A stretch of 64,000 nt of DNA, taken from the NCBI GenBank assembly GCA_016187035.1, contig JACPKL010000005.1, forward strand, positions 199,150 through 263,149. The letters are read 5' to 3'. The position numbers and the translations under genes were made by a program. The DNA is from Candidatus Daviesbacteria bacterium (GTDB lineage: Bacteria > Patescibacteriota > Microgenomatia > Daviesbacterales > UBA10151). Position 1 is the first letter of the stretch, and each line of letters begins with the position of its first letter. Below, piece after piece: positions 3,237 to 53,720 of this stretch. The notes under the pieces were generated by a model. The model was given only the letters and a program-made list of their open reading frames with translations, searched no databases and was not told the origin of the DNA.

Positions 3237-4024
3237 CTATTTGGGTGAATGCTATTGTACATAATGAGGAAAATTTTCTCTGGTTTGCTATTATGAGTGT
3301 GGTAGATTATGTTGATAAAGTTTTAGTATATGATACAGGTTCAACTGATAAAACTGTAGAGATAATAAGGGGAATAAGGGGGATTAAGGGGGATAAGGTG
3401 GAGTTTAAGGAGGTAGGTGTTGTTGATAAGGATAGGTTTCCTAAAATGCGTCAGGCTATGCTTGATGAGTCAAGATGTGATTGGATTTTAGTTTTAGATG
3501 GAGACGAAATTTGGTGGGAGGCTTCAATAAAAAAAGTTATAAATACTATCCAGAAAGAAGGAAATAAAATAGATGGAATTGTAGTGCCGATGATTGTTCC
3601 GGTGGGAGATATTTACCATTTTCAAGAAGAAAAGGCTGGGCAATATCAACTTTTGGGTAGAAAAGGGCATCTTAGTTTAAGGGCAATTAACAAAAAAATT
3701 CCTGGCCTTCATGTAGATTGGCCATATGGGAAGGAGAGTTATTTGGATAAAAACAATTCCCTGATTCAAGAAAGAGAAAATGTTATTTTTTTAGACAGCC
3801 CTTATCTGCATGTCACTCATCTTAAAAGATCTACTTCTAAGAGATGTTCCAATAAATTTAAACATGAATTGGGAAATATAAAAAAAGATTTTCAATATCC
3901 AGAAGTTTTTAGCAAAAGATTTCCTTCTATTGTTTCTTCACCCTGGCAAAAAATAAAAGGTGTAGATTTATTGATAGCAAAAGTATTAACACCATTTAGA
4001 AAAATTAAGAGGAGAATAAAATGA
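3233..4024 (+). CDS. GT2-family glycosyltransferase
   Basis: VYDTGSTDKT and VLDGDE (DxD) motifs of the GT-A fold. ATGA overlaps on both sides. Confidence 0.75.
   Translation: MTIWVNAIVHNEENFLWFAIMSVVDYVDKVLVYDTGSTDKTVEIIRGIRGIKGDKVEFKEVGVVDKDRFPKMRQAMLDESRCDWILVLDGDEIWWEASIKKVINTIQKEGNKIDGIVVPMIVPVGDIYHFQEEKAGQYQLLGRKGHLSLRAINKKIPGLHVDWPYGKESYLDKNNSLIQERENVIFLDSPYLHVTHLKRSTSKRCSNKFKHELGNIKKDFQYPEVFSKRFPSIVSSPWQKIKGVDLLIAKVLTPFRKIKRRIK
3369..3401 (+). repeat. In-CDS G-tract module (GGGGaataaGGGGGattaaGGGGGataaGGtGG)
   Basis: Three G4-5 runs at 9-10 nt spacing plus a split fourth run. Encodes RGIRGIKGDKV in a GT2 gene. Confidence 0.8.
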
Positions 4025-9967: not shown

Positions 9968-10981
9968 ATGCGTGTAGGAATGGATATTTCACAACTTGCA
10001 CATAAGGGAGGAGTAGTTACTTATACATTGAATTTAGCACAGCAGCTTTCTAGAGTTGAAGATTTAGATATGGTTTACTTTTTTTCTTCCCTAAGAAAAA
10101 AAGCCCCTCTTAATATTGATGGGAATATCAAAAAATTTTATCTACCTTCTACGCTTTTTGAAATGCTTTTTAATAAATGGAGAAATATACCAATTGAGAG
10201 ATTTATTGGAAAAGTGGATATATTTCATTCTTCTGATTGGATTCAACCTCCGTCTAGGGCTAAAAAAGTCACTACTTATCATGATGTTATTCCTCTAAAA
10301 TACCCGCAATGGTCCCACCCAAAAATTGTTGAAGTTCATAAGCGAAGGTTGAAATTAGTTGAGGATGAAATTGACATGGTGATTGCTGTTTCAGAAACCA
10401 CAAAAAAAGACTTGCTTGAAGTTTCCAGGATACCTGAGAAAAAAATTACTGTTATTTATGAAGGATCTACAATATCTAATAGCGTTAGAATCCAGAGTGA
10501 GGCTGAACTACGAAGATTTAGGGAGAAGTATAAGCTACCGGAAAGGTATATCCTAGCTATAGGAGGAGTAGGGGAAAGAAAAAACTTAAAAAGGGTGAAA
10601 GATGCTTGCCGCGGCTATAATTTGGTGATTGCAGGTGTTACACTCCCTTGGTTGAATATAGAAGAATTAAAGCTGCTTTATGCTTCTGCTGAGGTTTTGC
10701 TTTATCCGTCACTTTATGAAGGATTTGGTTTGCCGATATTGGATGCTCAAGCTTATGGATGTCCTGTTGTTACTTCTAATGTTTCCGCTATGCCTGAGGT
10801 AGCTGGAAAAGGCGCTATATTGGTAAACCCTTATTCAATTGAGGATATAATTAGAGGGATTAGGCAAGTTAAGGAAATTAGGGAAGAGGTTATACAAAAG
10901 GGTTTTGAGAATGTAAAAAGATTTTCCTGGGAAAAGTGTGCAAAAGAAACTGTAGAGGTGTACGGGAGGCTGATGAGATGA
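9968..10981 (+). CDS. GT4-family glycosyltransferase
   Basis: YEGFGLPILDAQAYGCPVVTSNVSAMPEVAG and [10 protein letters not shown]. Its C-terminal third is a close paralog of 50588..51754. Confidence 0.85.
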   Translation: MRVGMDISQLAHKGGVVTYTLNLAQQLSRVEDLDMVYFFSSLRKKAPLNIDGNIKKFYLPSTLFEMLFNKWRNIPIERFIGKVDIFHSSDWIQPPSRAKKVTTYHDVIPLKYPQWSHPKIVEVHKRRLKLVEDEIDMVIAVSETTKKDLLEVSRIPEKKITVIYEGSTISNSVRIQSEAELRRFREKYKLPERYILAIGGVGERKNLKRVKDACRGYNLVIAGVTLPWLNIEELKLLYASAEVLLYPSLYEGFGLPILDAQAYGCPVVTSNVSAMPEVAGKGAILVNPYSIEDIIRGIRQVKEIREEVIQKGFENVKRFSWEKCAKETVEVYGRLMR

Positions 10982-12108
10982 ATATCTGGATAGATGGGTA
11001 TGAAGCAAATGAATCCCAAAGACTTGGGTCCTCACAGGTAGCTTTTGAGCTGATAAAACATTTTGAAAAAATAGATAAGCAAAATACATATACAGTTTTG
11101 TTGCCGGGTAAACCTTTATATGATTTGCCTAAAGAAAGGAATGGATGGAGATATAAAGTTCTAAAACCTAAAAGACTTTGGACTAAGGTTGCTTTACCTT
11201 TGTCGTTGTATACTGCGAAACTGAAACCTCAAGTATTTTTTTCACCAACACATTATATTCCAAGCTTTTCACCCTCATCAGTTAAAAGAATAGTAACTAT
11301 ATTTGACTTATCTTTCCTGTATTTTCCAAAGATGTTTAATAAAAAAGATCTTTGGCAACTGATTAGTTGGACTAAATACTCCGCTTTGAATGCAGATCAT
11401 ATTATTACGATTTCTAATTTTTCTAAAAAAGATATTTGTGAGCAATACAAAGTTGATAAAAGTAGGGTTACAGTAGCTTATCCTGGATATGATAGAGATA
11501 AGTTCAAGGTTCAAGGTTCAAAGTTCAAAGTTGATGAAACTAAAAATAAATATAATTTAGGAGATAACTATAACTACATTATATATATAGGGACCATACA
11601 GCCTAGGAAAAATCTAATCAGATTAATTGAGGCAGTTTCACGGATAGATAATTTAGCTTTGGTAATTGTTGGTAAAACTTCAGGTGAAGGCAGAGGGGGT
11701 TGGATGTATGAAGAGACTTTATCAGCACCACAAGAATACGCAGTAGCAGATAGAGTTAAATTTTTGGGCTTTGTACCTACAGAAGATTTACTTTATTTAC
11801 TCTCTGGCGCTAAAGCGTATATTTTACCGTCACTTTGGGAGGGTTTTGGCATTCCGGTTTTAGAAGCGATGGCTTGTGGAGTGCCAGTAATAGTATCCAA
11901 TGTATCATCATTACCTGAAGTAGTTGGCAAAGCAGGACTTTTGATTGACCCTTATTCTGTTTCGCAGATAGAACAGGCAATTAGGACTGTTGTCACTGAT
12001 AAAAAATTGCAAAGTAAATATTCAAAAGCAGCTTTAGAACAAGTAAAGAAGTTTTCCTGGGAAAAAACAGCCAAGGCTGTTTTAAAAGTATTTGAAAACT
12101 TTGCTTAG
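10978..12108 (+). CDS. GT4-family glycosyltransferase
   Basis: WEGFGIPVLEAMACGVPVIVSNVSSLPEVVG and KFSWEKTAKA. The ATG at 10978 has GGGAGG 11 nt upstream and overlaps the upstream stop (ATGA). The track start at 10936 was rejected. Confidence 0.85.
   Translation: MNIWIDGYEANESQRLGSSQVAFELIKHFEKIDKQNTYTVLLPGKPLYDLPKERNGWRYKVLKPKRLWTKVALPLSLYTAKLKPQVFFSPTHYIPSFSPSSVKRIVTIFDLSFLYFPKMFNKKDLWQLISWTKYSALNADHIITISNFSKKDICEQYKVDKSRVTVAYPGYDRDKFKVQGSKFKVDETKNKYNLGDNYNYIIYIGTIQPRKNLIRLIEAVSRIDNLALVIVGKTSGEGRGGWMYEETLSAPQEYAVADRVKFLGFVPTEDLLYLLSGAKAYILPSLWEGFGIPVLEAMACGVPVIVSNVSSLPEVVGKAGLLIDPYSVSQIEQAIRTVVTDKKLQSKYSKAALEQVKKFSWEKTAKAVLKVFENFA
11504..11538 (+). repeat. Heptanucleotide tandem array TCAAGGT x2, TCAAAGT x2, TGATGAA inside a GT4 gene
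   Basis: Read directly. Encodes KFKVQGSKFKVDE. Confidence 0.9.
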
Positions 12109-12191: not shown

Positions 12192-12794
12192 ATGGTGTTC
12201 ATTAGAGATCGGATGGGAAAACCTTTAACTATGACTGAAGTATCTGTAAAGGTTGTTAGCAGGGTGTTTAATTGGATTTTGGATTTGGAGTTAATGATCT
12301 TAATATGGGTTGGTTTGGTGCCTTCTCATTTATTCCGTTTGCTACTTTATAGAATGGCTGGAATTAGAATAGGTAAAGGTTCAAGAATTCATACTGGAGC
12401 AAGATTTTTCTATCCTGCCAATATCAAGATAGGTCAGGATTCTATTATTGGAAATGATGTTTTTTTAGATGGCAGGGCAACTATTAATATTGGTAATCAT
12501 GTAGATATTGCCTCTGAAGTGATGATTTATAATAGTGAACATGATATAAACTCTGAGGATTTCCATGCCACAACCGGTTCTGTTACTATTGAAGATTACG
12601 TTTTTATAGGCCCTAGAGTAATTATTTTACCGAATGTGAGAATTGGTAAGGGAGCAGTTGTGGCTGCCGGAGCAGTGGTTACTAAAGATATTGATGAGTA
12701 CTCAATAGCGGGTGGAGTACCTGCGCAAATAATAGGAGAAAGGAAACTCAAAGACTTACATTACCAGCTAGGAAGAGCGCGGTTATTCCAATAA
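12192..12794 (+). CDS. Hexapeptide-repeat (LbH) O-acetyltransferase with N-terminal hydrophobic segment
   Basis: Repeated [LIV]-G-x-x-x-x hexads (IGKGSRIHTGARF..IGQDSIIGNDVFL..IGNHVDIASEVMI..IGKGAVVAAGAVV), as in WbbJ/WcaF/Mac-type acetyltransferases. Confidence 0.8.
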   Translation: MVFIRDRMGKPLTMTEVSVKVVSRVFNWILDLELMILIWVGLVPSHLFRLLLYRMAGIRIGKGSRIHTGARFFYPANIKIGQDSIIGNDVFLDGRATINIGNHVDIASEVMIYNSEHDINSEDFHATTGSVTIEDYVFIGPRVIILPNVRIGKGAVVAAGAVVTKDIDEYSIAGGVPAQIIGERKLKDLHYQLGRARLFQ

Positions 12795-14755: not shown

Positions 14756-16220
14756 AGCTTTTCTCAATATATGGAATCTGTTAAAGTCGCAATATTTTTG
14801 GCTTATTATTATTCTATTATTAGCGTTGGCTGCCAGACTTTATAAGATAGACAGTCCTATTGCTGATTGGCATTCTTGGAGGCAAGCAGATACTGCAGCA
14901 GTAACTAGAAATTTTGTCAAAATGGGTTTTAATCCATTTATAACTTATTATGATGATATGTCAGGGGTGTCAGAGATACCAGTTGTTAATCCCAACCGTT
15001 TCCGTTTTGTAGAGTTTCCCATTTATAACATAGTTACTTATCCTATTTATTTGTTCTTTGGAATTGAGGATAAATACTCACGATTAGTATCAGTTATATT
15101 TTCTTTAGGCAGTATTGTTTTTTTGTACCTTATTTGTAAAAGATATTTTGGAGCTAAAGTTTCTTTATTGACAGCGTTAATCTATGCTTTGCTGCCTTTC
15201 AATATATTTTTTTCCCGTACTACCCTGCCAGAACCGACTTTTTTGTTCTTTGCCTTAGGAATGATGTATTTTGTTGATAAGTGGATATGGGAGGGTAAGG
15301 GAGTTTGGGGAAGTTTAGGGTTTTTATTTACAGCAATAGCTTTTTTAATTAAACCTTGGGCAATATTTTTTACACCTCCTTTAATTTATTCTCTGTTGAG
15401 TAGATTTAGATTAGCTATTCCTAAAAAGTTTTTTTTACTTGCCTTAGCACTTCTGCCATTTATAGTTTGGAGGCTATGGATATTACAGCAACCTGAAGGG
15501 ATTCCGGCATCTGGTTGGTTGATGAATGGAGATCATATCCGTTTCAGACCAGCATTTTGGTGGTGGTTAATTTCTGAAAGAATAGGCAGAGAAATCTTAG
15601 GAGCTACAGGTTTAGTGCTTTTTGTCATTGGACTGTTGATTAGATCAAAGAAAGGATACTTTATGCATATTTGGCTTTTATCAAGTTTTCTATACTTTGC
15701 AATTTTTGCAACAGGTAATATTAGACATAATTATTACCAGTATATTTTTGTGCCAATTGCGGCTGTTTTTTTAACCCAGGGATTTATCAATCTGCTTTTA
15801 GGAGTGAGAGAATTTATACCAAGAATTTGGACAGTTAGTCTAGCATTACTTCTTTTACCTTTGTCATTTTATTTTAGTTGGACTCAAGTAAAAGGGTTTT
15901 ATCAAATTAATAACCCTGTAATAATCGAAGCAGGTAAAAAAGCTGACCAAATTTTACCAAAAGAGGCTATTGTTGTGGCACCATATAATGGAGATACAGC
16001 TTTCTTATATCAAACAAATAGACCTGGATGGCCAGTATCAGCCTTACCATTACCTGAGCTAGTTGCTGATTATGGTGTTACCCATTATGTATCTACTACC
16101 AGAGACGATAAAACAAATTGGGTACTAAGACATTTTTCTGTTTTAGAAGATAACCCTAAATTCGTTGTTGCTGACTTGACTAAAATAACCAAGCCTTTTA
16201 ATGATGATCCAGAACCATAA
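14748..16220 (+). CDS. Polytopic GT-C glycosyltransferase (ArnT/PMT_2-like)
   Basis: N-terminal IADWHSWRQADTAAVTRNF loop motif, then multiple TM helices and a soluble C-terminal domain. Confidence 0.6.
   Translation: MNKAFLNIWNLLKSQYFWLIIILLLALAARLYKIDSPIADWHSWRQADTAAVTRNFVKMGFNPFITYYDDMSGVSEIPVVNPNRFRFVEFPIYNIVTYPIYLFFGIEDKYSRLVSVIFSLGSIVFLYLICKRYFGAKVSLLTALIYALLPFNIFFSRTTLPEPTFLFFALGMMYFVDKWIWEGKGVWGSLGFLFTAIAFLIKPWAIFFTPPLIYSLLSRFRLAIPKKFFLLALALLPFIVWRLWILQQPEGIPASGWLMNGDHIRFRPAFWWWLISERIGREILGATGLVLFVIGLLIRSKKGYFMHIWLLSSFLYFAIFATGNIRHNYYQYIFVPIAAVFLTQGFINLLLGVREFIPRIWTVSLALLLLPLSFYFSWTQVKGFYQINNPVIIEAGKKADQILPKEAIVVAPYNGDTAFLYQTNRPGWPVSALPLPELVADYGVTHYVSTTRDDKTNWVLRHFSVLEDNPKFVVADLTKITKPFNDDPEP
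15289..15320 (+). repeat. In-CDS G-tract module, canonical G4 motif (GGGaGGGtaaGGGagtttGGGGaagtttaGGG)
   Basis: Five G3-4 runs. Encodes WEGKGVWGSLG in the second ArnT-like protein. Confidence 0.85.
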
Positions 16221-17421: not shown

Positions 17422-18540
17422 ATGAATATTGTTATTGATTGTCGGATGTATTCTGAGTCTGGTATTGGCAGGTATATCAGGAATTTGGTTTTCCAACTTC
17501 AACAGCTAGATCAGAAAAATCTATATTATCTTCTTTATTTAAATAAAGAGTATAAAACTTTACAGCATCGCTCTAATTTTAGAAAAGTTTTAGCTGATTT
17601 TAAGTGGTACGGAGTAGCAGAACAAATTAAGTTACTTGGGTTACTTAGGTCGCTTAAACCTGATCTTGTGCATTTCCCACATTTTAATACCCCCTTTTTT
17701 TACATAGGGAAATATATAGTGACGATTCACGATTTAATTCACCAGCATTTTTCTATGAAAAGGGCAACTACCCATGGATCAGTAATTTATAAAATTAAAC
17801 AAGCAGGATATAAAATTATTTTTAAAAACGCTCTGTTTAAATCTGCAAAAATCTTAGTGCCTTCGCAATTTGTTAAAGATCAATTAATCGGAGATTGGCA
17901 AGTCAATACAGAAAAAATTATAGTAACCCCAGAAGCAGTTGATAGTAATATCAAATATCAAATATCAAAGATCAAAGATGAAATGGTATTGAAAAAATTC
18001 AATATTAAGAAACCTTATATTTTTTATGTAGGGAACGCTCATCCTCATAAAAATATTGAGGGGCTAATCAGGGTATTTATGGTACTTAGGGAAAAGTATC
18101 ATAGGCTGCAGTTGGTTTTATCAGGACATGATCATTATTTTTGGGAAAAGATAAGAAAGAACAACAAACACAAAGATATTATTTATACAGGAAAAATAAA
18201 TGATGAAGAATTGGTTGTATTATATAAAAATGCTAAATGTTTTGTTATGCCTTCTTTTGAAGAAGGGTTTGGAATACCTATTCTAGAAGCAATGGCTTGC
18301 GGTTGTTGTGTTGTTTCATCTAATAAAGGAGCTCTGAGTGAAGTGGGGGGGGATGCAGTTGTTTATTTTGATCCTTATAATGCGGAAGACATGATAGAAA
18401 AAATCGAAAGCGTATTGAAATCAGATAAATTAAGACAGGGTTTAATAAAATTAGGTTATGAAAGAGTTGGTGGGTTTAGTTGGGAAAAATTAGCAAGACA
18501 AACTTTGGAGGTATATGAAAGTAGCTATTGTACACGATGA
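17422..18540 (+). CDS. GT4-family glycosyltransferase
   Basis: EEGFGIPILEAMACGCCVVSSNKGALSEVGGDA and GFSWEKLARQ. Contains a 7-nt tandem array and a G8 tract (see findings). Confidence 0.85.
   Translation: MNIVIDCRMYSESGIGRYIRNLVFQLQQLDQKNLYYLLYLNKEYKTLQHRSNFRKVLADFKWYGVAEQIKLLGLLRSLKPDLVHFPHFNTPFFYIGKYIVTIHDLIHQHFSMKRATTHGSVIYKIKQAGYKIIFKNALFKSAKILVPSQFVKDQLIGDWQVNTEKIIVTPEAVDSNIKYQISKIKDEMVLKKFNIKKPYIFYVGNAHPHKNIEGLIRVFMVLREKYHRLQLVLSGHDHYFWEKIRKNNKHKDIIYTGKINDEELVVLYKNAKCFVMPSFEEGFGIPILEAMACGCCVVSSNKGALSEVGGDAVVYFDPYNAEDMIEKIESVLKSDKLRQGLIKLGYERVGGFSWEKLARQTLEVYESSYCTR
17951..17985 (+). repeat. Heptanucleotide tandem array TCAAATA x2, TCAAAGA x2, TGAAATG inside a GT4 gene
   Basis: Read directly. 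Same 2+2+1 architecture as 11504-11538. Encodes IKYQISKIKDEM. Confidence 0.9.
18345..18352 (+). repeat. Poly-G tract (G8) inside the GT4 gene 17422..18540
   Basis: gtG GGG GGG Gat encodes V-G-G-D in the conserved SEVGGDA segment. Confidence 0.95.
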
Positions 18541-22469: not shown

Positions 22470-23129
22470 ATGCAAGGATTTAAGGCAGAGGGGATTGTGT
22501 TAAAAAGAAGGAATTTTGGGGAAGCGGACAGGATATTGACAATTTTATCTAAAAGCAAAGGAAAGATTGTTGTTTTGGCAAAAGGAGTAAGGAGAATTAC
22601 TTCCAGAAGAGCTGGGAATGTAGAGCTTTTAAACAGGGTATCTATATATCTTCATCAGACAAAAGGAATACCTATTTTAACTGAAGCAGAGAGTATAGAG
22701 AATTTCTCAAGATTAAAAGAAGATTTAATCCTGTCTACAGTAGCCTTTCATATAATTGAGCTGGCTGATAAATTAACAGCTGAAAACCAGGAGAATGGGA
22801 TTTTATATAATCATTTAGTGGAGGTATTACAAAGACTGGGGAAAAACCCCAGACAAATTTTAGTCAGAGCATTTGAGGCAAAGATATTAAGTAACTTGGG
22901 TTTTATGAGTTTCAGGGAGATTAGGGAGGAGAAGAGTCCAGTGGACTCTTCGAGTGGAGGGATTGGGGAATTATTAAAAGATTTAGAAATAGCTTCCTGG
23001 GATGAGATAGAAAAAAAGGAAATTAATCAAAAACAAGCTCTGGAAGTGGAACGCATATTACGATATCATTTAGAAAGAGTAATAGAGGGATCACTTAAGA
23101 GTAGGCAGTTTTTGAAAAAATATGAATAA
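22470..23129 (+). CDS. recO: DNA repair protein RecO
   Basis: N-terminal OB-fold sequence FKAEGIVLKRRNFGEADRILTILSKSKGKIVVLAKGVRR is typical of RecO. Confidence 0.85.
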   Translation: MQGFKAEGIVLKRRNFGEADRILTILSKSKGKIVVLAKGVRRITSRRAGNVELLNRVSIYLHQTKGIPILTEAESIENFSRLKEDLILSTVAFHIIELADKLTAENQENGILYNHLVEVLQRLGKNPRQILVRAFEAKILSNLGFMSFREIREEKSPVDSSSGGIGELLKDLEIASWDEIEKKEINQKQALEVERILRYHLERVIEGSLKSRQFLKKYE

Positions 23130-24438
23130 TAACTTAATGGAAAAAGTTGTAGCACTTTGTAAAAGAAGAGGGTTTATTTTCCCTGGTTCTCAAATTTATG
23201 GAGGATTGGCTAACTCCTGGGATTATGGTCCTTTAGGGGTAGAGCTGAAAAATAATATTAAACAGGCCTGGTGGAAAAGGTTTGTCCATCTTAGGGAAGA
23301 TGTTTTGGGAATAGATGCAGCCTTAATTATGAATCCTTTAGTTTGGGAAGCTTCAGGACATGTTGCTAATTTTCAAGATCCTTTAATAGAGTGTAAAAAG
23401 TGCCACCAGCGTTATAGGGTCGACTACATTAAAGATAAGATCTGTCCTAATTGTGGTGGAAAAGATTCTTTTACTGATGAAAAGATGTTTAATCTGATGT
23501 TTAAAACCTTTATTGGTCCAGCAGAGGAGCAAACAAACACTGCATATTTTAGGCCGGAAACAGCCCAGGCTATGTTCGTAGATTTTAGAAATGTAGTGGA
23601 TACCCAAAGATTAAGGCTGCCTTTTGGAATTGCCCAAATCGGGAAAGCGTTCAGGAATGAAATTACTCCAGGGAATTTTATATTTCGGACCCGCGAATTT
23701 GAACAAATGGAAATTGAATATTTTATCCCTCCTCCCAAATCTGAGAAAGATTGGCAAGGGCCATTTGAGGTTTGGAGAAAAGAGATTTTAGCCTGGACTG
23801 CCAATGATCTAGGTGTGGGACTGGAGAAAATCCATGAACATGAAATTCCTGCTAGTCAAAGGGCACATTACTCAAAACGGACCATTGATTTTGAGTATGA
23901 TTTTCCTTTTGGTGTGAGTGAATTATATGGATTGGCTTACAGGACTGATTTTGATTTAGCAAACCATGAGAGATACTCCGGACAAAATTTAAAATATAGG
24001 GATCCTGATACTGGTGAAGAATTTATCCCTCATGTAATAGAACCAACCTGGGGAGTAGACAGGTCAGTATTGGTTGTATTAATAGATAGCTATACTGAAG
24101 ATCAGGGAAGGGTGATTTTAAAACTTCCTCCAAAACTAGCTCCTATAAAGGTAGCTGTATTTCCACTTCTTGCGAATAAACCGGATCTGGTTGGAAAGGC
24201 AAAGGGAATATATCAGGATTTAAAGCATCAGTTTACAGTTGCCTGGGATGACAGGGGAAATATTGGAAAAAGGTATGCTTCTCAGGATGAGATTGGTACA
24301 CCATTTTGTATTACAGTGGATTTTCAAAGTTTGGAAGATGAAGCTGTGACAATTAGAGATAGAGACAGCGCTAAGCAAGAAAGAGTTAAAATAGTTGACT
24401 TAAAGACACACTTTTTTGGTAAGATAGAAGTAGAGTGA
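23122..24438 (+). CDS. glyQS: Glycine--tRNA ligase (dimeric class II type)
   Basis: CKRRGFIFPGSQIYGGLANSWDYGPLGVELKNNIKQAWW, FRPETAQAMF and FRNEITPGNFIFRTREFEQMEIEYF are class II motifs. Confidence 0.93.
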   Translation: MNNNLMEKVVALCKRRGFIFPGSQIYGGLANSWDYGPLGVELKNNIKQAWWKRFVHLREDVLGIDAALIMNPLVWEASGHVANFQDPLIECKKCHQRYRVDYIKDKICPNCGGKDSFTDEKMFNLMFKTFIGPAEEQTNTAYFRPETAQAMFVDFRNVVDTQRLRLPFGIAQIGKAFRNEITPGNFIFRTREFEQMEIEYFIPPPKSEKDWQGPFEVWRKEILAWTANDLGVGLEKIHEHEIPASQRAHYSKRTIDFEYDFPFGVSELYGLAYRTDFDLANHERYSGQNLKYRDPDTGEEFIPHVIEPTWGVDRSVLVVLIDSYTEDQGRVILKLPPKLAPIKVAVFPLLANKPDLVGKAKGIYQDLKHQFTVAWDDRGNIGKRYASQDEIGTPFCITVDFQSLEDEAVTIRDRDSAKQERVKIVDLKTHFFGKIEVE

Positions 24439-25331
24439 AACTTCAAAAACTGCTAAGGTTTAATAGGACTACTATAATTTTAGTATTTGCGATTATCCTA
24501 TTAGGAGTATTAAGTTGGTTAGGGGTACAAAAGTTTACTTCTCAAACTGTTGAACCTTTGGAAGAAGTTGATTTACCTTTTGATGCTGAAGGGCCTTATG
24601 CCATTTTATCTCCAAGACGTGATGGAAATGCTCTAATTTTAAATTTGAAAAGAACAGCGTCTTATGATTCTGTTATTTATGAGTTAGCCTACACCAGCAA
24701 AGTTGAAGATACAAAAGTGCAGGGTACTAAAGTACTTGAGGAGGGAGAGGGTCAGGGTAATGGAGGTAGTATAGACAGGGGAGTTCAGGGGACAATTGAT
24801 ACTAAAGACAAGAAAGGTGAGTACGAACAGGAGATTTTGTTTGGAACTTGTTCTAAAAATGTTTGTAAATATGATAAGGGAGTAGAGAACGGTACTTTAA
24901 CATTACATATTAAGAAAGGTAATAAAGCTTACAAAATGGTAACCCAATGGTATCTACAAAAGCCCGATATAGCACTTGGAGTTTTAACATCTGGAGACAA
25001 CCACTTAACCTACAAAGTAGATGCCTCAAGGGAGGAATTATCAAATGTAGGATTTTCTATTATTAATGATTTAACAGGAGTTCCAAAGTTGCCTGCTGGT
25101 AAAACAGCATTGGGTAAGGTTTATTCCTTGAATGTGCCTATTGCCAAAGAGTTAAAAAAAGGTTCAGTTACTCTAGAATTAGCAGAGAGCCCTTCGCCTG
25201 ATGTTAAGCTTTATAGATATAATCAATCAAAAGGTGATTGGGAGCAGTTGGATACAAAAATAGAAGGAAGTAAATTGTCAGCTGATGTTAGCGGAGCCGG
25301 TATATTTGCTGTTTTCGCCCTTAAGAAGTAG
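24435..25331 (+). CDS. Hypothetical membrane-anchored/secreted protein
   Basis: GTG start in an overlap with the glyQS stop. N-terminal TM helix (TIILVFAIILLGVLSWL). No recognised domain. Confidence 0.55.
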   Translation: MKLQKLLRFNRTTIILVFAIILLGVLSWLGVQKFTSQTVEPLEEVDLPFDAEGPYAILSPRRDGNALILNLKRTASYDSVIYELAYTSKVEDTKVQGTKVLEEGEGQGNGGSIDRGVQGTIDTKDKKGEYEQEILFGTCSKNVCKYDKGVENGTLTLHIKKGNKAYKMVTQWYLQKPDIALGVLTSGDNHLTYKVDASREELSNVGFSIINDLTGVPKLPAGKTALGKVYSLNVPIAKELKKGSVTLELAESPSPDVKLYRYNQSKGDWEQLDTKIEGSKLSADVSGAGIFAVFALKK

Positions 25332-25907: not shown

Positions 25908-26766
25908 GTCCGTTCTTCTAAGAGAAGTGATTAAGGCTTTGGATGTTCAGGATGACTATTGGTATTTGGATTGTACTTTAGGTGATGGTGGACATAGTCT
26001 AGAGATTCTAAAGCAAGGCGGGAAAGTGGTAGGGTTGGATGTGGATCCCCAAGCTTTAGAAAGAACTGAGGTCAGGTTAGGGGGTTTAGGGAATGTGGTA
26101 TTAATTCAAGGTAATTTTAGAGATTTAAAAGATTTACTAAAACAGCAGACGGACACTGACAGTCTAAAGTTTGCAGGTGCAATCTTTGATCTGGGGGTTT
26201 CCAGTTTGCAGTTCGAAGACCCCAACAGGGGTTTTTCCTTCTTAAGGCAAGGCCAGTTGGATATGAGAATGGATCCTTCCCTGCAGGTTAAAGCCCTTGA
26301 TTTGATTAACGTTTTATCAAGAAAGGAGTTATATGAATTATTTCATAATTTGGGTGAAGAGAAATATTCTAAGCGTTTGGCTGCTGCTTGCTCAAGCACC
26401 CGTGAAGTAGTGCCAATAAGAACAACAACAGAGTTAGCCGAACTGATGGTTAGGGCGGTGGGGGGTCTTAGAGAAAAGATTCATCCTGCTACCAGAGTAT
26501 TCCAAGCCTTAAGGATAGCTGTAAATGATGAGCTAAATGCTTTAAAAGCTGGTTTAGATCAGGTTAAGGATTTAGTTTATGGGTACATTTGCGTTATTTC
26601 TTTTCATTCTTTGGAAGATAGAATTGTTAAGACTGTATTTAAAGAATGGGAAGGCAAGGGTGTGGGTCAGATAGTAACAAGGAAACCCATTGTGCCTTCT
26701 GATGAAGAAATATATGAAAATCCCAGGTCCAGGTCGGCAAAAATGAGAGTTTTTAAAAAGATATGA
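25891..26766 (+). CDS. rsmH: 16S rRNA (cytosine1402-N4)-methyltransferase RsmH/MraW
   Basis: HRSVLLREV, DCTLGDGGHS, DLGVSSLQFED and FHSLEDRIVK. The ATG at 25891 has GAGGAG 8 nt upstream. The track start at 25873 was rejected. Confidence 0.92.
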   Translation: MEGYHRSVLLREVIKALDVQDDYWYLDCTLGDGGHSLEILKQGGKVVGLDVDPQALERTEVRLGGLGNVVLIQGNFRDLKDLLKQQTDTDSLKFAGAIFDLGVSSLQFEDPNRGFSFLRQGQLDMRMDPSLQVKALDLINVLSRKELYELFHNLGEEKYSKRLAAACSSTREVVPIRTTTELAELMVRAVGGLREKIHPATRVFQALRIAVNDELNALKAGLDQVKDLVYGYICVISFHSLEDRIVKTVFKEWEGKGVGQIVTRKPIVPSDEEIYENPRSRSAKMRVFKKI

Positions 26767-30159: not shown

Positions 30160-30215
30160 TAATAAAACTATGTCATTTCTAGGTTGTTCTGTCAAGCTTA
30201 TCAAGGACCGTCCCC
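30153..30215 (+). repeat. Family-A repeat copy A4; left member of the 63-bp direct repeat framing murE
   Basis: TAGGCATTAATAAAACTATGTCATTTCTAGGTTGTTCTGTCAAGCTTATCAAGGACCGTCCCC. By manual alignment, 61/63 identical to 31372-31434. Confidence 0.9.
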
Positions 30216-31381
30216 TTCTTCAGAAGTTAAAAAACATTTTTTATCATTTGCCGCAGGCTTTTATAGCTAATATTTTATATGGGTTTCCGTCAAATGGTAT
30301 GACGATTGTTGGAGTAACTGGGACTGATGGAAAAACAACTACTACTAATTTGATTTATAAAATCCTTAAAGATTCAGGCAAAAAGGTCTCAATGATTTCT
30401 ACTATTAATGCTGTGATAGGGGGGAAAACCTATGACACCGGTTTTCATGTAACTAGTCCAGATCCTTTTACGTTGCAAAAATTTATTAGAAATGCAAAAA
30501 ATTCAGGGGATAATTACTTAGCTTTGGAAGTCACCTCACATGCTTTAGACCAATACAGATTCTGGGGGATTAATTTTACAGTTGGGGTAATCACCAATAT
30601 AACTCATGAACATTTAGATTACCATCAGACTTTTGAAAATTATTTTAAGACTAAATTAAAGCTTATTAAATATGCTAAGTGGAGGGTTGTTAATGAAAAT
30701 CTGAAGGGAGATTGGGGTGATAGGGGAAGTAAGGGTAATGGGGTAGTCACATTTGGTAGCAGTGGCCCCAAGCTTAATTTAAAACTAATAGGTGATTATA
30801 ATCTTGAAAATGCTTATGCCTCTTTGGCTGTAGCTAAGGTTTTAGGAATTGATGCAGAAAGCGCCCAAAGATCTGTGGAAGGGTTTACAGGTATTCCTGG
30901 AAGAATGGAAGAAGTAAAAAACAATAGGGGTATTAAAATATTTGTTGATTTTGCTCATACTCCGAATGCCTTAAAGCAAGCTCTTAAAGCTTTACGTCCC
31001 AAGGCATACGGAAGATTGATTGTTGTTTTTGGGGCTGCTTCAGAAAGAGATATTTTGAAACGTCCCATTATGGGAGAAATTGCTGCAAAAGAAGCTGATA
31101 TGACTATACTGACTGATGAAGATCCAAGGCACGAAGATAGAAATAAAATCTTAAATGAAATTGCCGGAGGAGCTATGATGGCGGGAGCAAAAGATGGGAT
31201 AAATCTATTTAAGGAACCGGATAGAGCTAAAGCTATTAAGTTGGCTATAACTTTAGCCAAAAAAGGAGATATAATAGGAATTTTTGGAAAAGGTCACGAA
31301 AAATCAATTAATTATAGGGGAGTGGAAACTCCGTGGTCAGATTTTGAGGCAGTAAAGAAAGCTTTAACTAATAGGCATTAA
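30170..31381 (+). CDS. murE: UDP-N-acetylmuramoyl-L-alanyl-D-glutamate--(2,6-diaminopimelate or L-lysine) ligase MurE (short form)
   Basis: GVTGTDGKTTTT P-loop, HEHLDYHQTFENYF and VDFAHTPNALKQAL. EDPR sits at the DNPR position. The ATG at 30170 lies inside repeat A4; an alternative ATG at 30299 sits just before the P-loop. Confidence 0.85.
   Translation: MSFLGCSVKLIKDRPLLQKLKNIFYHLPQAFIANILYGFPSNGMTIVGVTGTDGKTTTTNLIYKILKDSGKKVSMISTINAVIGGKTYDTGFHVTSPDPFTLQKFIRNAKNSGDNYLALEVTSHALDQYRFWGINFTVGVITNITHEHLDYHQTFENYFKTKLKLIKYAKWRVVNENLKGDWGDRGSKGNGVVTFGSSGPKLNLKLIGDYNLENAYASLAVAKVLGIDAESAQRSVEGFTGIPGRMEEVKNNRGIKIFVDFAHTPNALKQALKALRPKAYGRLIVVFGAASERDILKRPIMGEIAAKEADMTILTDEDPRHEDRNKILNEIAGGAMMAGAKDGINLFKEPDRAKAIKLAITLAKKGDIIGIFGKGHEKSINYRGVETPWSDFEAVKKALTNRH
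30706..30743 (+). repeat. In-CDS G-tract module, canonical G4 motif (GGGagattGGGGtgataGGGGaagtaaGGGtaatGGGG)
   Basis: Five G3-4 runs starting at 30706, 30714, 30723, 30733 and 30740. Encodes KGDWGDRGSKGNG in murE. Confidence 0.85.
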
Positions 31382-42121: not shown

Positions 42122-44929
42122 ATGGTTAGATTTAAACCTGTTTTGTCGACAGTAGATTTTTTTGAAATTGAGGAGCAGTTAATTAAATACTGGGAAGACA
42201 ATAAAATATTTGAAAGGTCTATTAATGAACGGCCTGAGGATCGGAAATGGACATTTTTAGATGGTCCTCCTTTTGTGACTGGCACACCTCACTTCGGGTC
42301 ACTGCTTTCTTCTATTCCTAAAGATGTATTTGGCAGATACTTCACCATGAAAGGATATCGGGTCAGAAGGGTTTGGGGATGGGATGGCCATGGTTTGCCA
42401 ATTGAAAATAAAGTTGAGCAGGAGTTGAGGTTGAAGAGTAAAAAAGACATAGAAGAAAAGGTGGGGGTGGATAGGTTTATTAAAGAATGTTTAAAGTATG
42501 TTCAGGATGTGTCAGCTGATTGGGAGTGGTATATTAAGCACATTGGCAGGTGGGTAGATTTTAAAAACGCTTATAAAACCTGGGATTTGCCTTATATGGA
42601 ATCGGTAATGTGGGTTTTTAAGCAAATTTATGATAAGGGTTTGGTTTATAAAGGTTTAAGAGTTTCCCTTTACTGCCCTCATTGCGCTACCCCAATTTCC
42701 AATTTTGAGGTAGCCATGGATGCGGATAATTATAAAGATGTGACAGAAGCCTCGAATGTTTATAAATACCCTTTAAAGGATCAGCAAAACACTTTCCTTT
42801 TAGCATGGTCAACAACTCCCTGGAATAAAATTGTTACCCCTGCTTTGGCTGTTAATCCCAAATTGACTTATGTAAAAGTTAAACAAGGTGATGAAAATTA
42901 TATTCTGGCTAAAACTACTTTAAAAATGCTTAAAGAAGAGCCAAAAATAGAAGTTTTAGAAGAGTTTAAAGGAAGTGAGTTAATAGGCAAAAAATTTATC
43001 CCCCATTATGATTTTTACCCAATTAATCCAGGAAAATTGGCTTTTGTCGTGGTAGGAGGGGATTTTGTATCAGATGAGGAAGGGACAGGGATTGTGACTT
43101 TGGCTGCATATGGTGAAGAAGATTTGGAAATAATGAAAAAGGAAAACATTCAAATTGTCTTACACGTTGATGATGAGGGTATTATTTTGGACTCTGTGCC
43201 CAAATTTGGCGGAATGTATTACCTGAAGGCCAATGAACTGGTTAATAAAGACCTGGCTGACAGAGGGTTACTTTATGATGAAAAACAACTTTCACATTCT
43301 GTTGCCCATTGCTGGAGGTGCGCAACCCGTTTGTTTTATGCTCCCAAGGATGCTTGGTATATTGATGTACAGAAAATTAAACCGCAACTGTTTAAAAATA
43401 ATGAGCCAATAAACTTCTTCCCCAAACATTTTAAAATGGGGAGATTTAAAAAAAGCATGGAAGCTGCCCCTGATTGGAATATTTCCAGGAACAGATACTG
43501 GGGTTCACCTGTGCCTGTTTGGGAATGTGAATGCGGGGAAAGGTTTGTGCCGGGCGGAGTAAAAGAACTGGAAGAGAAGTCAGGACAGGAAGTGAGTAAT
43601 CTGCACAAACCATTTATTGATGAAGTTAAAATCACTTGTAAAAGTTGTGGCAAGAAAGTTGCGAGAGTTCCGGAGGTTCTGGATTCCTGGATAGAGGCCG
43701 GGTCAGCATCTTTTGCAGAACGCCACTTTCCTTTTGAAAAAGATTTAAAGCTGGAAGACTTTTTTCCTCCTGATTTTATTGCTGAATATACAGGACAAAT
43801 AAGAGCCTGGTTTTATGTGCTTCATGTCATTGGTACAGCGCTTTTCAACTCCCCTGCTTTTAAGAATGTTTTGGTGGAAGGGGTCATGCTTGGGACTGAC
43901 GGCAGGAAAATGAGCAAGAATTATGGAAATTTCCCTGACCCAAAAGAAATCATGACCCAATATGGCGGAGATGCTTTACGTCTTTATCTTTTGGGATCTC
44001 CGGTAATGAAAGGGGAAGATGTTAATTTCTCCAGTGACGGTGTACCGCAAGTTTCAAGAGGGTTTTTATTAATTCTTTGGAACTGTTATAAATATTTTGT
44101 AGATTATGCCAATACATTTGACTTCAGTTATACTTCTTCTGAGGATTTAACAATATTAGATAAATGGATTTTAGCCAGGTTAACCCAAGTAGTTTTAGAT
44201 ATAAAAAACTCTTATGAAAATTATGATACTTCAGCTGCTGTTAAACTTTTAAAGGAATTTATAGTAAATGATTTATCTACCTGGTATATCAGGAGATCAA
44301 GGGGCAGGAAAGAAGCTTTAAATATTCTTTATGATTGTCTAATAACTTTAACTAAACTTTTAGCTCCCCTGGCTCCGTTTATTTCTGAGGAAATATTTAA
44401 AAATTTAACAGGTGAGGAGTCAGTGCATTTACAGCAGTTTCCCAGAGGGGATCAAAAACTTTTGGATAATAGGGTGATAAGGGAAATGAGGCTAGTTAGG
44501 GAAATAGGGGAGAAAGCGCATGCTTTAAGAAAAGAAGCTAACATTAAACTTAGACAACCATTAGCTTCTCTTACTTATGCAATGGATCATCAATTGGATA
44601 AAGATTTAGAACAAATTTTAGCAGAAGAATTGAACGTTAAGAAGATTGAGTATAAACAGTCTTCAGAATCCGAGCCAAAAGTTGAACTGAATACAAATAT
44701 TACTCTTGAGCTTAAAGAAGAAGGTGAAGTTAGAGATTTAATCAGGCAAATCCAACAACTTAGGAAAAATCAAAACCTAACTTTAGCTGATAAAACTAAA
44801 ATTATCGCTCCTTCCTGGTCTAAAGATTTCGAAGAGCAGATTTTAAAAAGCACAACTTCGACTTCAATTGTTAAAGGAGGTCAATTGGAGATAGTAAAAG
44901 CAGAGAATGAAGTTAGTAAAGGTAGTTAA
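42122..44929 (+). CDS. ileS: Isoleucine--tRNA ligase
   Basis: PPFVTGTPHFGS (HIGH-type), GWDGHGLP, a CP1 editing insert, KMSKN (KMSKS) and Cys clusters (CPHCATP, CWRCATR, CECGERF..CKSCGKK). ATG at 42122 (MVRFKPV...) preferred to the track TTG at 42095. Confidence 0.93.
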   Translation: MVRFKPVLSTVDFFEIEEQLIKYWEDNKIFERSINERPEDRKWTFLDGPPFVTGTPHFGSLLSSIPKDVFGRYFTMKGYRVRRVWGWDGHGLPIENKVEQELRLKSKKDIEEKVGVDRFIKECLKYVQDVSADWEWYIKHIGRWVDFKNAYKTWDLPYMESVMWVFKQIYDKGLVYKGLRVSLYCPHCATPISNFEVAMDADNYKDVTEASNVYKYPLKDQQNTFLLAWSTTPWNKIVTPALAVNPKLTYVKVKQGDENYILAKTTLKMLKEEPKIEVLEEFKGSELIGKKFIPHYDFYPINPGKLAFVVVGGDFVSDEEGTGIVTLAAYGEEDLEIMKKENIQIVLHVDDEGIILDSVPKFGGMYYLKANELVNKDLADRGLLYDEKQLSHSVAHCWRCATRLFYAPKDAWYIDVQKIKPQLFKNNEPINFFPKHFKMGRFKKSMEAAPDWNISRNRYWGSPVPVWECECGERFVPGGVKELEEKSGQEVSNLHKPFIDEVKITCKSCGKKVARVPEVLDSWIEAGSASFAERHFPFEKDLKLEDFFPPDFIAEYTGQIRAWFYVLHVIGTALFNSPAFKNVLVEGVMLGTDGRKMSKNYGNFPDPKEIMTQYGGDALRLYLLGSPVMKGEDVNFSSDGVPQVSRGFLLILWNCYKYFVDYANTFDFSYTSSEDLTILDKWILARLTQVVLDIKNSYENYDTSAAVKLLKEFIVNDLSTWYIRRSRGRKEALNILYDCLITLTKLLAPLAPFISEEIFKNLTGEESVHLQQFPRGDQKLLDNRVIREMRLVREIGEKAHALRKEANIKLRQPLASLTYAMDHQLDKDLEQILAEELNVKKIEYKQSSESEPKVELNTNITLELKEEGEVRDLIRQIQQLRKNQNLTLADKTKIIAPSWSKDFEEQILKSTTSTSIVKGGQLEIVKAENEVSKGS
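44472..44510 (+). repeat. In-CDS 9-nt periodic G-tract module in ileS
   Basis: Units aatagggtg / ataagggaa / atgaggcta / gttagggaa / ataggggag. Encodes NRVIREMRLVREIGE. Confidence 0.75.
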
Positions 44930-48138: not shown

Positions 48139-48215
48139 GGTCGTGTAGCTCAGCTGGTTAGAGTGCTTCGTTCACATCGAAGAGGTCTCTGGTTCGAGTC
48201 CAGACACGACCACCA
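48139..48215 (+). tRNA. tRNA-Val (anticodon CAC), CCA encoded
   Basis: Manual cloverleaf: acceptor GGTCGTG/CACGACC, D arm GCTC..GAGT, anticodon stem CTTCG/CGAAG with loop TTCACAT, T arm TCTGG-TTCGAGT-CCAGA, then ACCA. Confidence 0.9.
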
Positions 48216-50002: not shown

Positions 50003-50591
50003 ATTTTACTCTAAAACATACTCGCTTGAGTATCTTATTCAAAATGCCTTTTATCACCTTAAATTTTTTAACGCTATTTGGGAGGAATCTCCTAAAAAAA
50101 TACTGGAAGTAGGAGTGGGAACAGGTTCCATGTCGATCTTTTTTTCCTATTTAGGTTTGGATGTTACTGGTTTGGATAATGATAAAGATATTTTAAAAAG
50201 GGTTTCAGATTTAACTAAAAAGCTAAACGGGAAAGTTAAATTAGTTTTAGGAAACGCCTTAAAGCTTCCGTTTAAAAGTAAATCTTTTGATCTAATATTT
50301 CATCAGGGTTTTTTGGAGCATTTTGAGGAGAAAGAAATTATTGAGCTTCTTTGGGAGCAGTTGAGGGTTAGTCAAACAGTGGTTTTTAGCGTCCCAAACA
50401 ACTTTTATCAAAAAAAAGATTTTGGTGATGAGAGATTACTGTCCAAAGCTTACTGGGATAAACTGTTACAAACAAACTATAATTTAATAGAAAGCCAAAA
50501 TTATAACCCTGTCAGAAAAACTTTTTTTAAAGGACGCTTGCCATATAAAGTAGTCCAAAATATGTATTTTGCCAAAATAACAAAAAAGTGA
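49983..50591 (+). CDS. Class I SAM-dependent methyltransferase
   Basis: Motif I ILEVGVGTGSMS, then DLIFHQGFLEHF. Confidence 0.75.
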   Translation: MKKNWDKFYSKTYSLEYLIQNAFYHLKFFNAIWEESPKKILEVGVGTGSMSIFFSYLGLDVTGLDNDKDILKRVSDLTKKLNGKVKLVLGNALKLPFKSKSFDLIFHQGFLEHFEEKEIIELLWEQLRVSQTVVFSVPNNFYQKKDFGDERLLSKAYWDKLLQTNYNLIESQNYNPVRKTFFKGRLPYKVVQNMYFAKITKK

Positions 50592-51754
50592 AAAAAATAG
50601 CAGTTGATTTAAGACCTCTTGAGAGCCCAACAGGCAAAAGAGGCGTAGGTTATTTTAACAGGCATCTTTTTAAGGCATTACTAGAAAAGCCTCATCCTGA
50701 TTTTAAATTTAATCTTTTTACTTTCCCAAACAGCAGGCTGCAAAACGGGTTTAAGGTGGGGCCGGATGATAAGTTCCAATCAGTTCCCGCCCTATATTGG
50801 CCCAAGAAAGGACTTAGAAGGTTTGATCCGCTATTTTCATTAATTTGGTCCCGCACTATCAATACACTAAAACCCGATCTTTTACACATCCCTTTCCTCT
50901 TTGATGTTTATTATCTGGCAGTTTTGGATAATATCAGGGTGGTTGTGACCCTTTATGACACTATTCCGCTTACTTTTCCAAAAGAGTATTTCCAAAATGA
51001 GAAAGCAAAGCTTTGGTATATGGAAAGATTGACTCAGGCAAAAAAGGCAGCAAAGATTATCACTATTTCCAAGTCATCAAAAAAAGACATAGAAAGATTA
51101 TTAGAAATTCCGCCAGAAAAAATTAAAGTAATTTATGGGGGAATTGACCAGAAATTTAAAGTCATGGAAATACTGAAAATTAGGGAGACTCTGAGGAAAT
51201 ATAAAATCAAAACACCGTATATTTTAACAGTTAGTACCCACAGTTTTCATAAAAATATAGAAAGAATTTTTCAGGCTTTTAAGAAATATATGATAGAAGA
51301 AAAGAATGCACAGTTAATTTTAGTAGTAGTCTGCAGATTGATTTCTGGTGAAAAACGGGATTGGGTGAAACAATTAAAAGAGCTTGGGATAGAAAAAAGG
51401 GTAATACTTACAAACTTTGTTGAGGATGATGATTTACCTGCAATTTATAATGGGGCTAAATTATTTTTATTTCCTTCACTATATGAGGGATTGGGGTTAC
51501 CAATACTGGAAGCCCAGGCTTGTGGCTGTCCGGTGATTACTTCAAATATTTCATCCATGCCTGAGGTGGCTGGGAAAGGGGCAATCCTGGTAGATCCTTA
51601 CTCAACTAAAGATATTATCAGGGGGGTTAGGGAAGTTAGGGAAATTAGGGAAGAATTGATAAAAAAAGGATTTGAGAATGTAAAAAGATTTTCCTGGGAA
51701 AAATGTGCAAGGGAAACGCTGGAAGTATACAGAGAAATTCTACAAGGCCATTAA
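50588..51754 (+). CDS. GT4-family glycosyltransferase (paralog of 9968..10981)
   Basis: [41 protein letters not shown]...[10 protein letters not shown]. Shares an identical 32-nt run with the 10.9-kb paralog. Confidence 0.85.
51621..51650 (+). repeat. In-CDS G-tract module, canonical G4 motif (GGGGGGttaGGGaagttaGGGaaattaGGG)
   Basis: TTAGGG at 51627, 51636 and 51645, an exact 9-nt period. Encodes [10 protein letters not shown] in a GT4 gene. The paralog at 10857-10883 holds a decayed version. Confidence 0.85.
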
Positions 51755-53648: not shown

Positions 53649-53720
53649 GCGGTGGTAGTTCAGTGGTAGAATGTCTCCTTCCCAAGGAGAAGGTCGGGGG
53701 TTCAAATCCCCTCCACCGCT
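53649..53720 (+). tRNA. tRNA-Gly (anticodon CCC)
   Basis: Acceptor GCGGTGG/CCACCGC, D arm GTTC-AGTGGTA-GAAT, anticodon stem TCTCC/GGAGA with loop TTCCCAA, T arm GGGGG-TTCAAAT-CCCCT, discriminator T. No CCA encoded. Confidence 0.9.

Follow-up and report, generated by a model that had tools for sequence, protein, structure and literature searches.

Nine-Nucleotide G-Tract Blocks in Coding Sequences of a Candidatus Daviesbacteria Bacterium: Peptide By-Products and a Few Probable Slippage-Type Arrays

Short blocks of G-runs spaced about 9 nt apart were analysed within plus-strand genes of a 64,000-nucleotide stretch of a Candidatus Daviesbacteria genome (contig JACPKL010000005.1, positions 199,150 to 263,149 of the forward strand), a bacterium of the candidate phyla radiation (CPR). 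This whole stretch is referred to as the window. The blocks probably belong to two layers, one of by-products of peptide sequence and base composition, and one of a few slippage-type coding arrays built from 9-nt units with G-tracts. The excess of canonical G-quadruplex (G4) motifs over chance in the window is real but modest.

Excess of G-Tract Motifs and Repeats in the Window and in Related Loci

The window had a GC content of 31–38%, a positive GC skew throughout (+0.07 to +0.25) and nearly all of its long open reading frames (ORFs) on the plus strand. It contained 602 G3+ runs compared with 316 C3+ runs, and only seven G6+ runs. Pfam analysis of the host genes identified Mur ligase M and C domains, two PMT_2/GT39 proteins, two GT4 and one GT2 glycosyltransferases, IleS, RsmH and RecO. 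No Pfam family was matched by the gene at 24435–25331, which hosts the block in a hypothetical protein.

A canonical G4 motif was defined as (G3+N1-7)x3G3+, i.e., at least four G3+ tracts with loops of 1–7 nt. The initial annotation had listed ten blocks, all of which were found where it placed them, on the sense strand and in the kinds of genes named. Its statement that at least four were canonical also held. Five motifs were present on the plus strand (7595–7621, 15289–15320, 30706–30735, 42360–42383 and 51621–51650), including one that had not been listed (42360–42383). The GT2, IleS 44472, rsmH, recO and GT4-paralog blocks did not satisfy the definition.

The plus-strand genes were shuffled 1000 times under each of three schemes. 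The five canonical motifs compared with 0.18 expected after codon-order shuffling, 1.47 after synonymous shuffling (p = 0.008) and 1.88 after dinucleotide-preserving synonymous shuffling (p = 0.013). The corresponding values for clusters of at least four G-runs were 6 observed vs 0.30, 1.74 and 2.14, and for G-run start spacings of 8–10 nt, 36 observed vs 13.4, 18.1 and 21.7. The amino-acid sequence therefore lifts the G4 expectation approximately 10-fold, leaving approximately 3-fold to codon choice. Codon-shuffled controls had been proposed as a check on the blocks; by these controls the peptide accounts for most of the G4 signal, with an approximately 3-fold residue left over the synonymous shuffles. 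When the peptide and the codon usage of the window were given, the probability of a G4 motif was 0.11 for MurE, 0.026 for ArnT1, 0.25 for ArnT2, 0.022 for GT4 and 0.18 for IleS 42360.

The synonymous use of G at third codon positions showed no local autocorrelation at lags of 1–15 codons, in the window and in its relatives. The idea that synonymous codons ending in G cluster locally as a general rule was rejected on this basis, and the residue therefore belongs to a few loci and not to regional codon heterogeneity. With the peptide held constant, the blocks were individually slightly more self-similar at a shift of 9 than expected (p = 0.02–0.11 per block), a circular result in that they had been picked on G periodicity.

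These results could be taken to mean that nothing acts at the DNA level. Chance from G-skewed codons, together with protein-level selection favouring amphipathic R/E helices and loops rich in Gly, would then generate the blocks, and the residue would be a post hoc artefact. Most of the signal does come from the peptide, and the probabilities of 0.11–0.25 for MurE, ArnT2 and IleS fit such an account, as do the absence of autocorrelation, the conserved motifs that make up half of the listed blocks, and the total number of tandem repeats in the window, which equalled that of the shuffles (28 vs 27). Evidence against it came from an unbiased comparison by Tandem Repeats Finder (TRF) across a wider sample, comprising a Daviesbacteria pool of 160 kb of coding sequence (the window and loci L082–L084, L086–L088, L093 and L095) and a control pool of 303 kb of coding sequence from other AT-rich CPR loci. 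In-frame repeats with at least two G3+ tracts numbered 6 in the Daviesbacteria pool vs 1.0 in synonymous shuffles (0/60 shuffles reached 6), while in-frame repeats lacking G-tracts numbered 17 vs 15.5. In the control pool, G-tract repeats were at 1 vs 0.5, and the excess there consisted of A-rich repeats. The excess was thus confined to repeats with G-tracts, and to the Daviesbacteria pool.

Canonical G4 motifs were likewise denser in the lineage: the Daviesbacteria loci (182 kb) contained 10 and the other AT-rich CPR loci (367 kb) contained 1. For G-runs chained at distances of 7–11 nt, the probability of a further run rose in Daviesbacteria from 0.07 at the first step to 0.17–0.27 at later steps. 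In the other CPR loci it was approximately 0.05–0.07 over the first two steps, and no chains of more than three runs were found. The glycosylation cluster showed an equal excess over dinucleotide-preserving shuffles in the window (2 G4 motifs vs 0.3) and in L095 (2 vs 0.3; 46 vs 34 at lags of up to 12), which also counts against a purely protein-level origin.

The codon choice inside the arrays was analysed using tandem [K/R/W/M]-Gly-x arrays picked by peptide only, with K-Gly and R-Gly dipeptides elsewhere as the background. In the window, AAG was used for 5/6 Lys (background 0.20) and AGG for 5/5 Arg (background 0.33). The independent Daviesbacteria loci replicated this choice (AAG 6/6, background 0.24; AGG 4/4, background 0.35). 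The effect was absent from the other AT-rich CPR loci, with AAG 2/8 (background 0.28) and AGG 1/1 (background 0.34). Across the pooled Daviesbacteria arrays, 20 of the 21 Lys and Arg codons ended in G, compared with a background of approximately 0.27. The units within an array and the orthologous arrays are not independent; counted once per locus, the proportion was 6/7 (p = 0.002). The GGG codon for Gly was not enriched inside the arrays. A nucleotide-level cause, as had been suggested for all blocks, is therefore indicated for a subset, by its codon choice and by the excess of G-tract repeats. Slippage fits this subset best, and the part of the suggestion that invoked a selected G4 signal was not sustained.

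Gain and Loss of Units in the ArnT and MurE Loops

The numbers of units differed between relatives. The inter-helix loop of ArnT1 (PMT_2/GT39) carries the array NRD-KGN-RGD-RV (7591–7626, plus strand), with four G-tracts that form a canonical G4 motif. The loop is short in 113/120 orthologs (about KGEKLN), and in 6/120, the window protein included, it is longer by 3 or 6 amino acids made up of [KRM]-G-[NGDS] units, the window loop having 3 more than most orthologs. At the DNA level, the expanded orthologs contained 9-nt and 18-nt tandem units. The array in L095 reads AGG GGT GGT / AAG GGA GGT / AAG GGT AGT, and in L094 an 18-nt unit occurs twice, the copies differing at a single position (TRF score 67). 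Over 14.5 kb, L094 and L095 share 87% identity, and a 9-nt indel between them falls exactly within this array.

A second PMT-like gene of L094 contained an (L-G-x)n G-tract array, GGGTTGGGGAGTTTGGGGGTTTTGGGGAGGTTAGGG, at 12320–12350. The corresponding L095 segment (12350–12400) was interrupted by a 27-nt insertion, and in the window ortholog (8534–9937) the G-tract array was absent at that site.

The ArnT2 array WEG-KGV-WGS-LGF (15285–15323, plus strand) has five G-tracts and a canonical G4 motif and is largely determined by its peptide. The block aligns to the ArnT1 loop, and its L095 ortholog shows a different indel pattern, with three tracts.

The MurE array, AAG GGA GAT / TGG GGT GAT / AGG GGA AGT / AAG GGT AAT / GGG (30701–30748, plus strand), encodes KGD-WGD-RGS-KGN-G at a loop where the MurE alignment is rich in indels. 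With five G-tracts, it includes a canonical G4 motif; given its peptide, the probability of at least five runs was 0.017. The host protein (30170–31381) was 100% identical to a Candidatus Daviesbacteria (CPR) protein at NCBI, with the next-best matches at 66–67%. The number of x-Gly-x units in the loop is five in the window protein, four and three in those of L082 and L083, respectively, and between zero and two in the others. L082 and L083 have five and three G-tracts, respectively, at the equivalent site, and their nearest relatives lack such arrays. The three expanded proteins are not mutual nearest relatives, i.e., they are scattered over non-sister lineages. The G-richness of the L082 and L083 loops was not significant given their peptides (p = 0.11 and 0.17, respectively), a point in favour of the purely protein-level account.

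The AlphaFold2 model of MurE had a mean predicted local distance difference test score (pLDDT) of 86.7. The sole internal segment below 50, residues 183–189, lies inside the block, between strands 171–175 and 192–195, placing at least one of the arrays at a flexible-loop site. The Daviesbacteria MurE-like ligases are approximately 400 amino acids long and matched the Pfam families Mur_ligase_M and Mur_ligase_C but not the N-terminal Mur ligase domain; in the model, a single long N-terminal helix (residues 14–37) is predicted in place of that domain.

On the L082 contig, a further four-tract array was identified outside the called coding sequence, at 3602–3631, between the stop codon of MurE (3594) and the next ATG (3655). 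It consists of GGGAGATAT GGGTAATAA GGGGAATAT GGGAGATG, is a canonical G4 motif, and reads GDMGNKGNMGD in a frame without an ORF. Its units resemble the MurE loop array of the same contig.

Taken together, a purely protein-level origin of the blocks appears rather unlikely to us. In addition to the repeat excess and the replicated codon choice, the near-perfect 18-nt duplication of L094 spans synonymous positions, a 9-nt indel separates two otherwise 87%-identical genomes, and one array lies outside coding sequence. The proposal that the blocks are lineage-specific insertions was supported for ArnT1 and in part for MurE, but not for GT2, GT4 or either IleS block, the lengths of which match orthologs or solved structures.

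A phase-variable contingency locus was considered and rejected, as units of 9 or 18 nt keep the reading frame and no G-run in the blocks is longer than 6 nt. Coding tandem repeats with a 7-nt unit were also observed in the window, AAGTTCA x4.7 at 11500–11532 (TRF score 52) and AATATCA x5.4 at 17947–17984 (TRF score 55). As 7 is not divisible by three, the encoded peptides repeat every seven residues (KFKVQGSKFKV and NIKYQISKIKD).

Tandem Repeats in the GT2 and GT4 Genes

Two blocks of the window are 9-nt tandem repeats at the DNA level. The GT2 block, ATA AGG GGA / ATA AGG GGG / ATT AAG GGG / GAT AAG GTG (3365–3403, plus strand), encodes IRG-IRG-IKG-DKV and has three G3+ tracts. TRF identified a 9-nt repeat at 3365–3402, ATAAGGGGG x4.1, with a score of 53–60. 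The GT4 block, AGG GGG / GTT AGG GAA / GTT AGG GAA / ATT AGG GAA (51617–51655, plus strand), lies in a C-terminal helix and is a canonical G4 motif, with a 9-nt repeat at 51626–51653, GTTAGGGAA x3.1. Compared with these two, period-9 repeats with a score of at least 45 were expected 0.02–0.07 times in shuffles.

The GT2 segment is a helix-turn of equal length in 30 orthologs (consensus IIKEIxKIKGxKI). It is therefore a homogenised helix-turn segment and not an insertion. The L094 ortholog of GT2 also showed a 9-nt periodicity, TAAGGGAAG x3.6. The GT4 segment is no longer than its counterpart in other GT4 proteins. In the L095 GT1 protein, a helix reading VIRAVREIGEGS corresponds to VIDAVSKMDEGS in the window; the two are of equal length, and the array sits where the window has none.

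A second copy of the GT4 block, IRG-IRQ-VKE-IRE (10853–10888, plus strand; two G3+ tracts), lies in a paralog and is not an independent occurrence. The two GT4 genes (50588–51754 and 9968–10981) are 40 kb apart and approximately 20% identical over most of their length, whereas their last ~90 codons show 75–90% protein identity and up to 90% nucleotide identity. This pattern suggests a partial gene conversion of the C-terminal segment.

Several other origins were tried and rejected. A local patch of A-to-G hypermutation was discounted, as the gains and losses of G between the GT4 paralogs were 31 vs 32 over the last 140 aligned codons. The insertion of a mobile module was discounted, as the GT2, GT4 and IleS blocks have the length of their orthologs or of solved structures. 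An assembly artefact was discounted, as the GT2 and ArnT1 blocks recur unchanged (100% identity) in the independent Logan assembly L089; L090 is likewise 100% identical to the window.

Blocks Determined by Conserved Peptides

Most of the remaining blocks belong to the layer set by peptide and composition. Relative to residue shuffles, GxxGxxG was enriched 2.5–3-fold in all three protein sets (the window, the Daviesbacteria relatives and the other AT-rich CPR loci), so that a three-residue periodicity of Gly is common to proteins in general. Conserved features of the proteins make up about half of the list, the outcome that the initial annotation had named as a refutation of its reading.

The canonical motif that had not been listed (42360–42383, plus strand) encodes WGWDGHG in the catalytic domain of IleS and is a peptide by-product; GWDxHG is a conserved motif of class I synthetases. 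The listed IleS block, helix RVIREMRLVREIGEK (44468–44515, plus strand), has four G3+ tracts spaced too widely for a canonical motif. Its alignment to KLEKEMAAVLQVVELG of the solved IleRS structure 8c8u_A, just before the K(L/V)(R/K)QPL segment, contained no gaps, and on this alignment it is a conserved structural helix, not an insertion.

The G-rich segment of the hypothetical protein, EEGEGQGNGGSIDRGVQG (24738–24794, plus strand), is a conserved protein feature, its peptide and G-runs being common to the orthologs in L084 (five runs) and L086 (four runs). RsmH contains two clusters. The variable loop RLGGLGN (26074–26094, plus strand; two tracts) differs in length between orthologs, several of which also have G-runs there, and the second cluster (26648–26666, plus strand) encodes WEGKGVG, conserved in L083, L084, L086 and L088. 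The block FREIREE (22911–22931, plus strand; two tracts) lies in a variable C-terminal region of RecO that is not alignable among orthologs; L087 has GGGGAAGTAAGGGGGGTTAGGG (EVRGVRE) nearby. A GT1 segment that had not been listed, WARKWAWGSR (5818–5847, plus strand), has four G3+ tracts. Its peptide is conserved (W-A-x-x-W-A-W-G-S/T), the L094 and L095 orthologs also carry G-runs, and the cluster is a by-product of Trp and Gly codons.

Other features ascribed to the blocks did not survive inspection. The G-runs are not always in frame, as their codon phase shifts inside blocks (e.g., 3,2,2,3,1 in murE and 2,3,2,2 in ArnT1). The 9-nt period is exact in GT4 (9,9,9) and near in GT2 (9,10), but the spacings in the other blocks range from 4 to 12 nt. 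AGG and GGG, which had been considered unusual, make up 30% of Arg codons and 19% of Gly codons in the window, respectively, so that neither is rare, and their use as evidence is circular, G-runs being the criterion on which the blocks were selected. The near-identical strings in unrelated genes encode EIREE or EIGEK, in helices. Furthermore, the ArnT blocks are the same loop of two paralogs and the GT4 blocks share an apparently gene-converted C-terminus; these are therefore not independent cases.

The Rfam matches in the window were limited to three tRNAs (48139–48212 and 53649–53720 on the plus strand, and 57888–57961 on the minus strand). An ORF of at least 1217 codons (60350–64000) extends past the window end.

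Strand Asymmetry and Predicted Quadruplexes

The minus strand of the window contained zero canonical G4 motifs, an asymmetry that follows from the general excess of G over C. The G-tracts might also be a strand-oriented chromosomal signal, such as a KOPS/SRS-like guide for FtsK or a Chi-like motif, given that the G-rich words are confined to the strand with the G skew and that TTAGGG occurs 48 times on the plus strand and 9 times on the minus strand. However, signals of the KOPS or Chi type are dispersed single copies and not clustered arrays, and no invariant, skewed G-rich octamer was found in the 64 kb (GGGNAGGG, 2 vs 1), where the strongest skew among 7- and 8-mers was shown by A/T-rich words of coding sequence. 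We consider such a signal very improbable, and the option of a recombination motif, raised in the initial annotation, was dropped on the same octamer result. The TTAGGG skew exceeds that of the G3+ runs; it is consistent with the frequent codon pairs TTA-GGN and nTT-AGG-Gnn and gives no indication of a telomere-like or signalling motif.

A different proposal is that the arrays are selected nucleic-acid structures, in which a G4 in the mRNA or the non-template strand would slow translation or transcription at loops and domain junctions, or would mark sites for proteins, the G-tracts being retained at synonymous positions by selection. The excess of canonical motifs, approximately 3-fold relative to synonymous shuffles, is consistent with this, as is the codon choice in orthologous arrays at approximately 60% protein identity, where the G-ending Lys and Arg codons are kept while the third position of Gly varies. 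Non-conservative K/R/W/M exchanges retain the third-position G, and the spacers of the arrays are poor in C (approximately 5% vs 13–15%). The ViennaRNA G4 model placed a quadruplex in the minimum-energy fold of ArnT1, ArnT2, GT4 and IleS, with MurE marginal (−16.33 vs −16.0 kcal/mol). Such folding is, however, an in silico prediction. Most Daviesbacteria arrays have three tracts only, and the chain sizes show no step at four (121, 22, 6 and 1 chains of two, three, four and five tracts, respectively). The dcw clusters of the relatives lack a G4 excess, and the GGG codons for Gly are not enriched within the arrays. The sites also differ by lineage, the helix array of the L094 and L095 GT1 proteins being absent in the window and the window GT2 and GT4 arrays being absent or weak in L095. 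A selected G4 function is thus not supported, and we regard it as distinctly unlikely; a slippage origin does not need a G4.

Discussion

We propose that the two layers arise as follows. In the first, the sense strand of an AT-rich genome is G-skewed, with its G concentrated in the codons for Gly (GGN), Arg (AGG), Trp (TGG) and Met (ATG) and in G-starting codons. Peptides with a three-residue period (Gly-x-x loops and hydrophobic-Arg-Glu/Gly helices) therefore give rise to sense-strand G-tracts about 9 nt apart, some sets of which satisfy the G4 definition by chance. The second layer consists of a few true 9-nt, sometimes 18-nt, arrays of the form A[A/G/T]G-GGN-[G/A]AT or [G/A]TT-AGG-GAA, distributed across Daviesbacteria. 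Such arrays lie in change-tolerant loops or helix ends, where they gain, lose and homogenise units, probably through slipped-strand mispairing or short template switching, with GGG acting as a stable microhomology in weakly pairing, A/T-rich DNA. Only shifts by a multiple of three would survive in coding sequence, and every extra unit would favour more slippage. GGG-anchored slippage of this kind may be the reason for the near-constant G-ending Lys or Arg codon before Gly. The G4 motifs would be by-products or, at most, promoters of polymerase stalling.

Several observations weigh against the combination of peptide by-products and slippage-type arrays. The repeats in GT2, GT4 and the L095 GT1 protein are present without a change in length relative to orthologs; plain duplication is therefore insufficient, and a conversion-like overwriting must be assumed. 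The databases searched yielded neither within-population length variants nor close variants of the host proteins. The dcw clusters of the Daviesbacteria relatives showed no excess of G4 motifs (1 vs 1.6–2.7 shuffled), and the 6.8 kb directly upstream of the window contained zero G-run clusters. The peptide pattern used in the codon test was picked post hoc, after the arrays had been seen, and the independent array loci number only approximately seven. When any GxxGxxG was used for ascertainment, the effect in the window was weak (0.30 vs 0.17, p = 0.04) and the relatives showed none, as the purely protein-level account would predict. Finally, the retention of the G-ending codon in orthologs at approximately 60% identity could equally reflect selection on the G-tract.

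A stronger variant would invoke a lineage-specific regime of mutation or selection, in which G-tract 9-nt units seed, expand and overwrite loop arrays, possibly through polymerase stalling at G4 structures, or in which the arrays are RNA or DNA G4 pause sites. With seeding and overwriting of this kind, the evolution of protein loops in an AT-rich, repair-poor CPR lineage would be driven by nucleic-acid structure. We consider this unlikely, and retain the reading of composition and peptide by-products with a few slippage-type arrays.

Prokaryotic coding repeats favour frame-preserving unit lengths (PMC12699852). The arrays described here share with coding simple sequence repeats and variable-number tandem repeats the head-to-tail units with a multiple-of-three length, the differences in unit number among relatives, and the location in tolerant protein regions. 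They differ in having three to five units, in being restricted to G-tract units and in their hosts, which are enzymes of housekeeping and of the envelope in a CPR lineage with AT-rich DNA; several were also homogenised without a change in length. A leading-strand bias of bacterial G4 motifs has been catalogued across genomes and linked to GC skew (PMC12581993). As in that catalogue, the canonical motifs were confined to the G-skewed strand. Unlike the catalogued G4 motifs, those of the window lie within coding sequences of a 34% GC genome, at Gly and Arg codon junctions, and most of the related arrays have fewer than four tracts.

Mycobacterial PE_PGRS proteins (CGGCGGCAA units) and collagen-like Gly-X-Y proteins (BclA, Scl) contain arrays of tens to hundreds of units in dedicated surface-protein domains. 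The common features are a 9-nt unit encoding a tripeptide with a fixed Gly, G-rich DNA and a change in length by gain or loss of units. The arrays described here, in contrast, comprise three to five K/R/W/M-Gly-N/D units within enzyme loops, with no Pro/Thr or Ala, and none in the window amounts to a long Gly-tripeptide domain with tens of units. The Gly-Ala repeat mRNA of the viral protein EBNA1 is long and purine-biased, and its RNA G4s limit translation, both their formation and their function having been shown experimentally. In EBNA1, as here, the synonymous codon choice in a Gly-rich repeat produces sense-strand G-tracts; unlike that long viral repeat, the present arrays are short and their G4 is predicted. 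What sets the present arrays apart is that they are very short, lie within the loops of enzymes, are bound to G-tract units and appear to be specific to one CPR lineage.

At present, these arrays amount to a modest curiosity rather than a new system. The finding carries a caution for catalogues of G4 motifs, in that many hits on G-skewed coding strands are Gly, Arg and Trp codon junctions. If the DNA layer is genome-wide, G-runs in a streamlined, AT-rich CPR bacterium would be hotspots at which loop tripeptides are added, removed and homogenised. If true, this would provide a concrete route from sequence composition to protein evolution.

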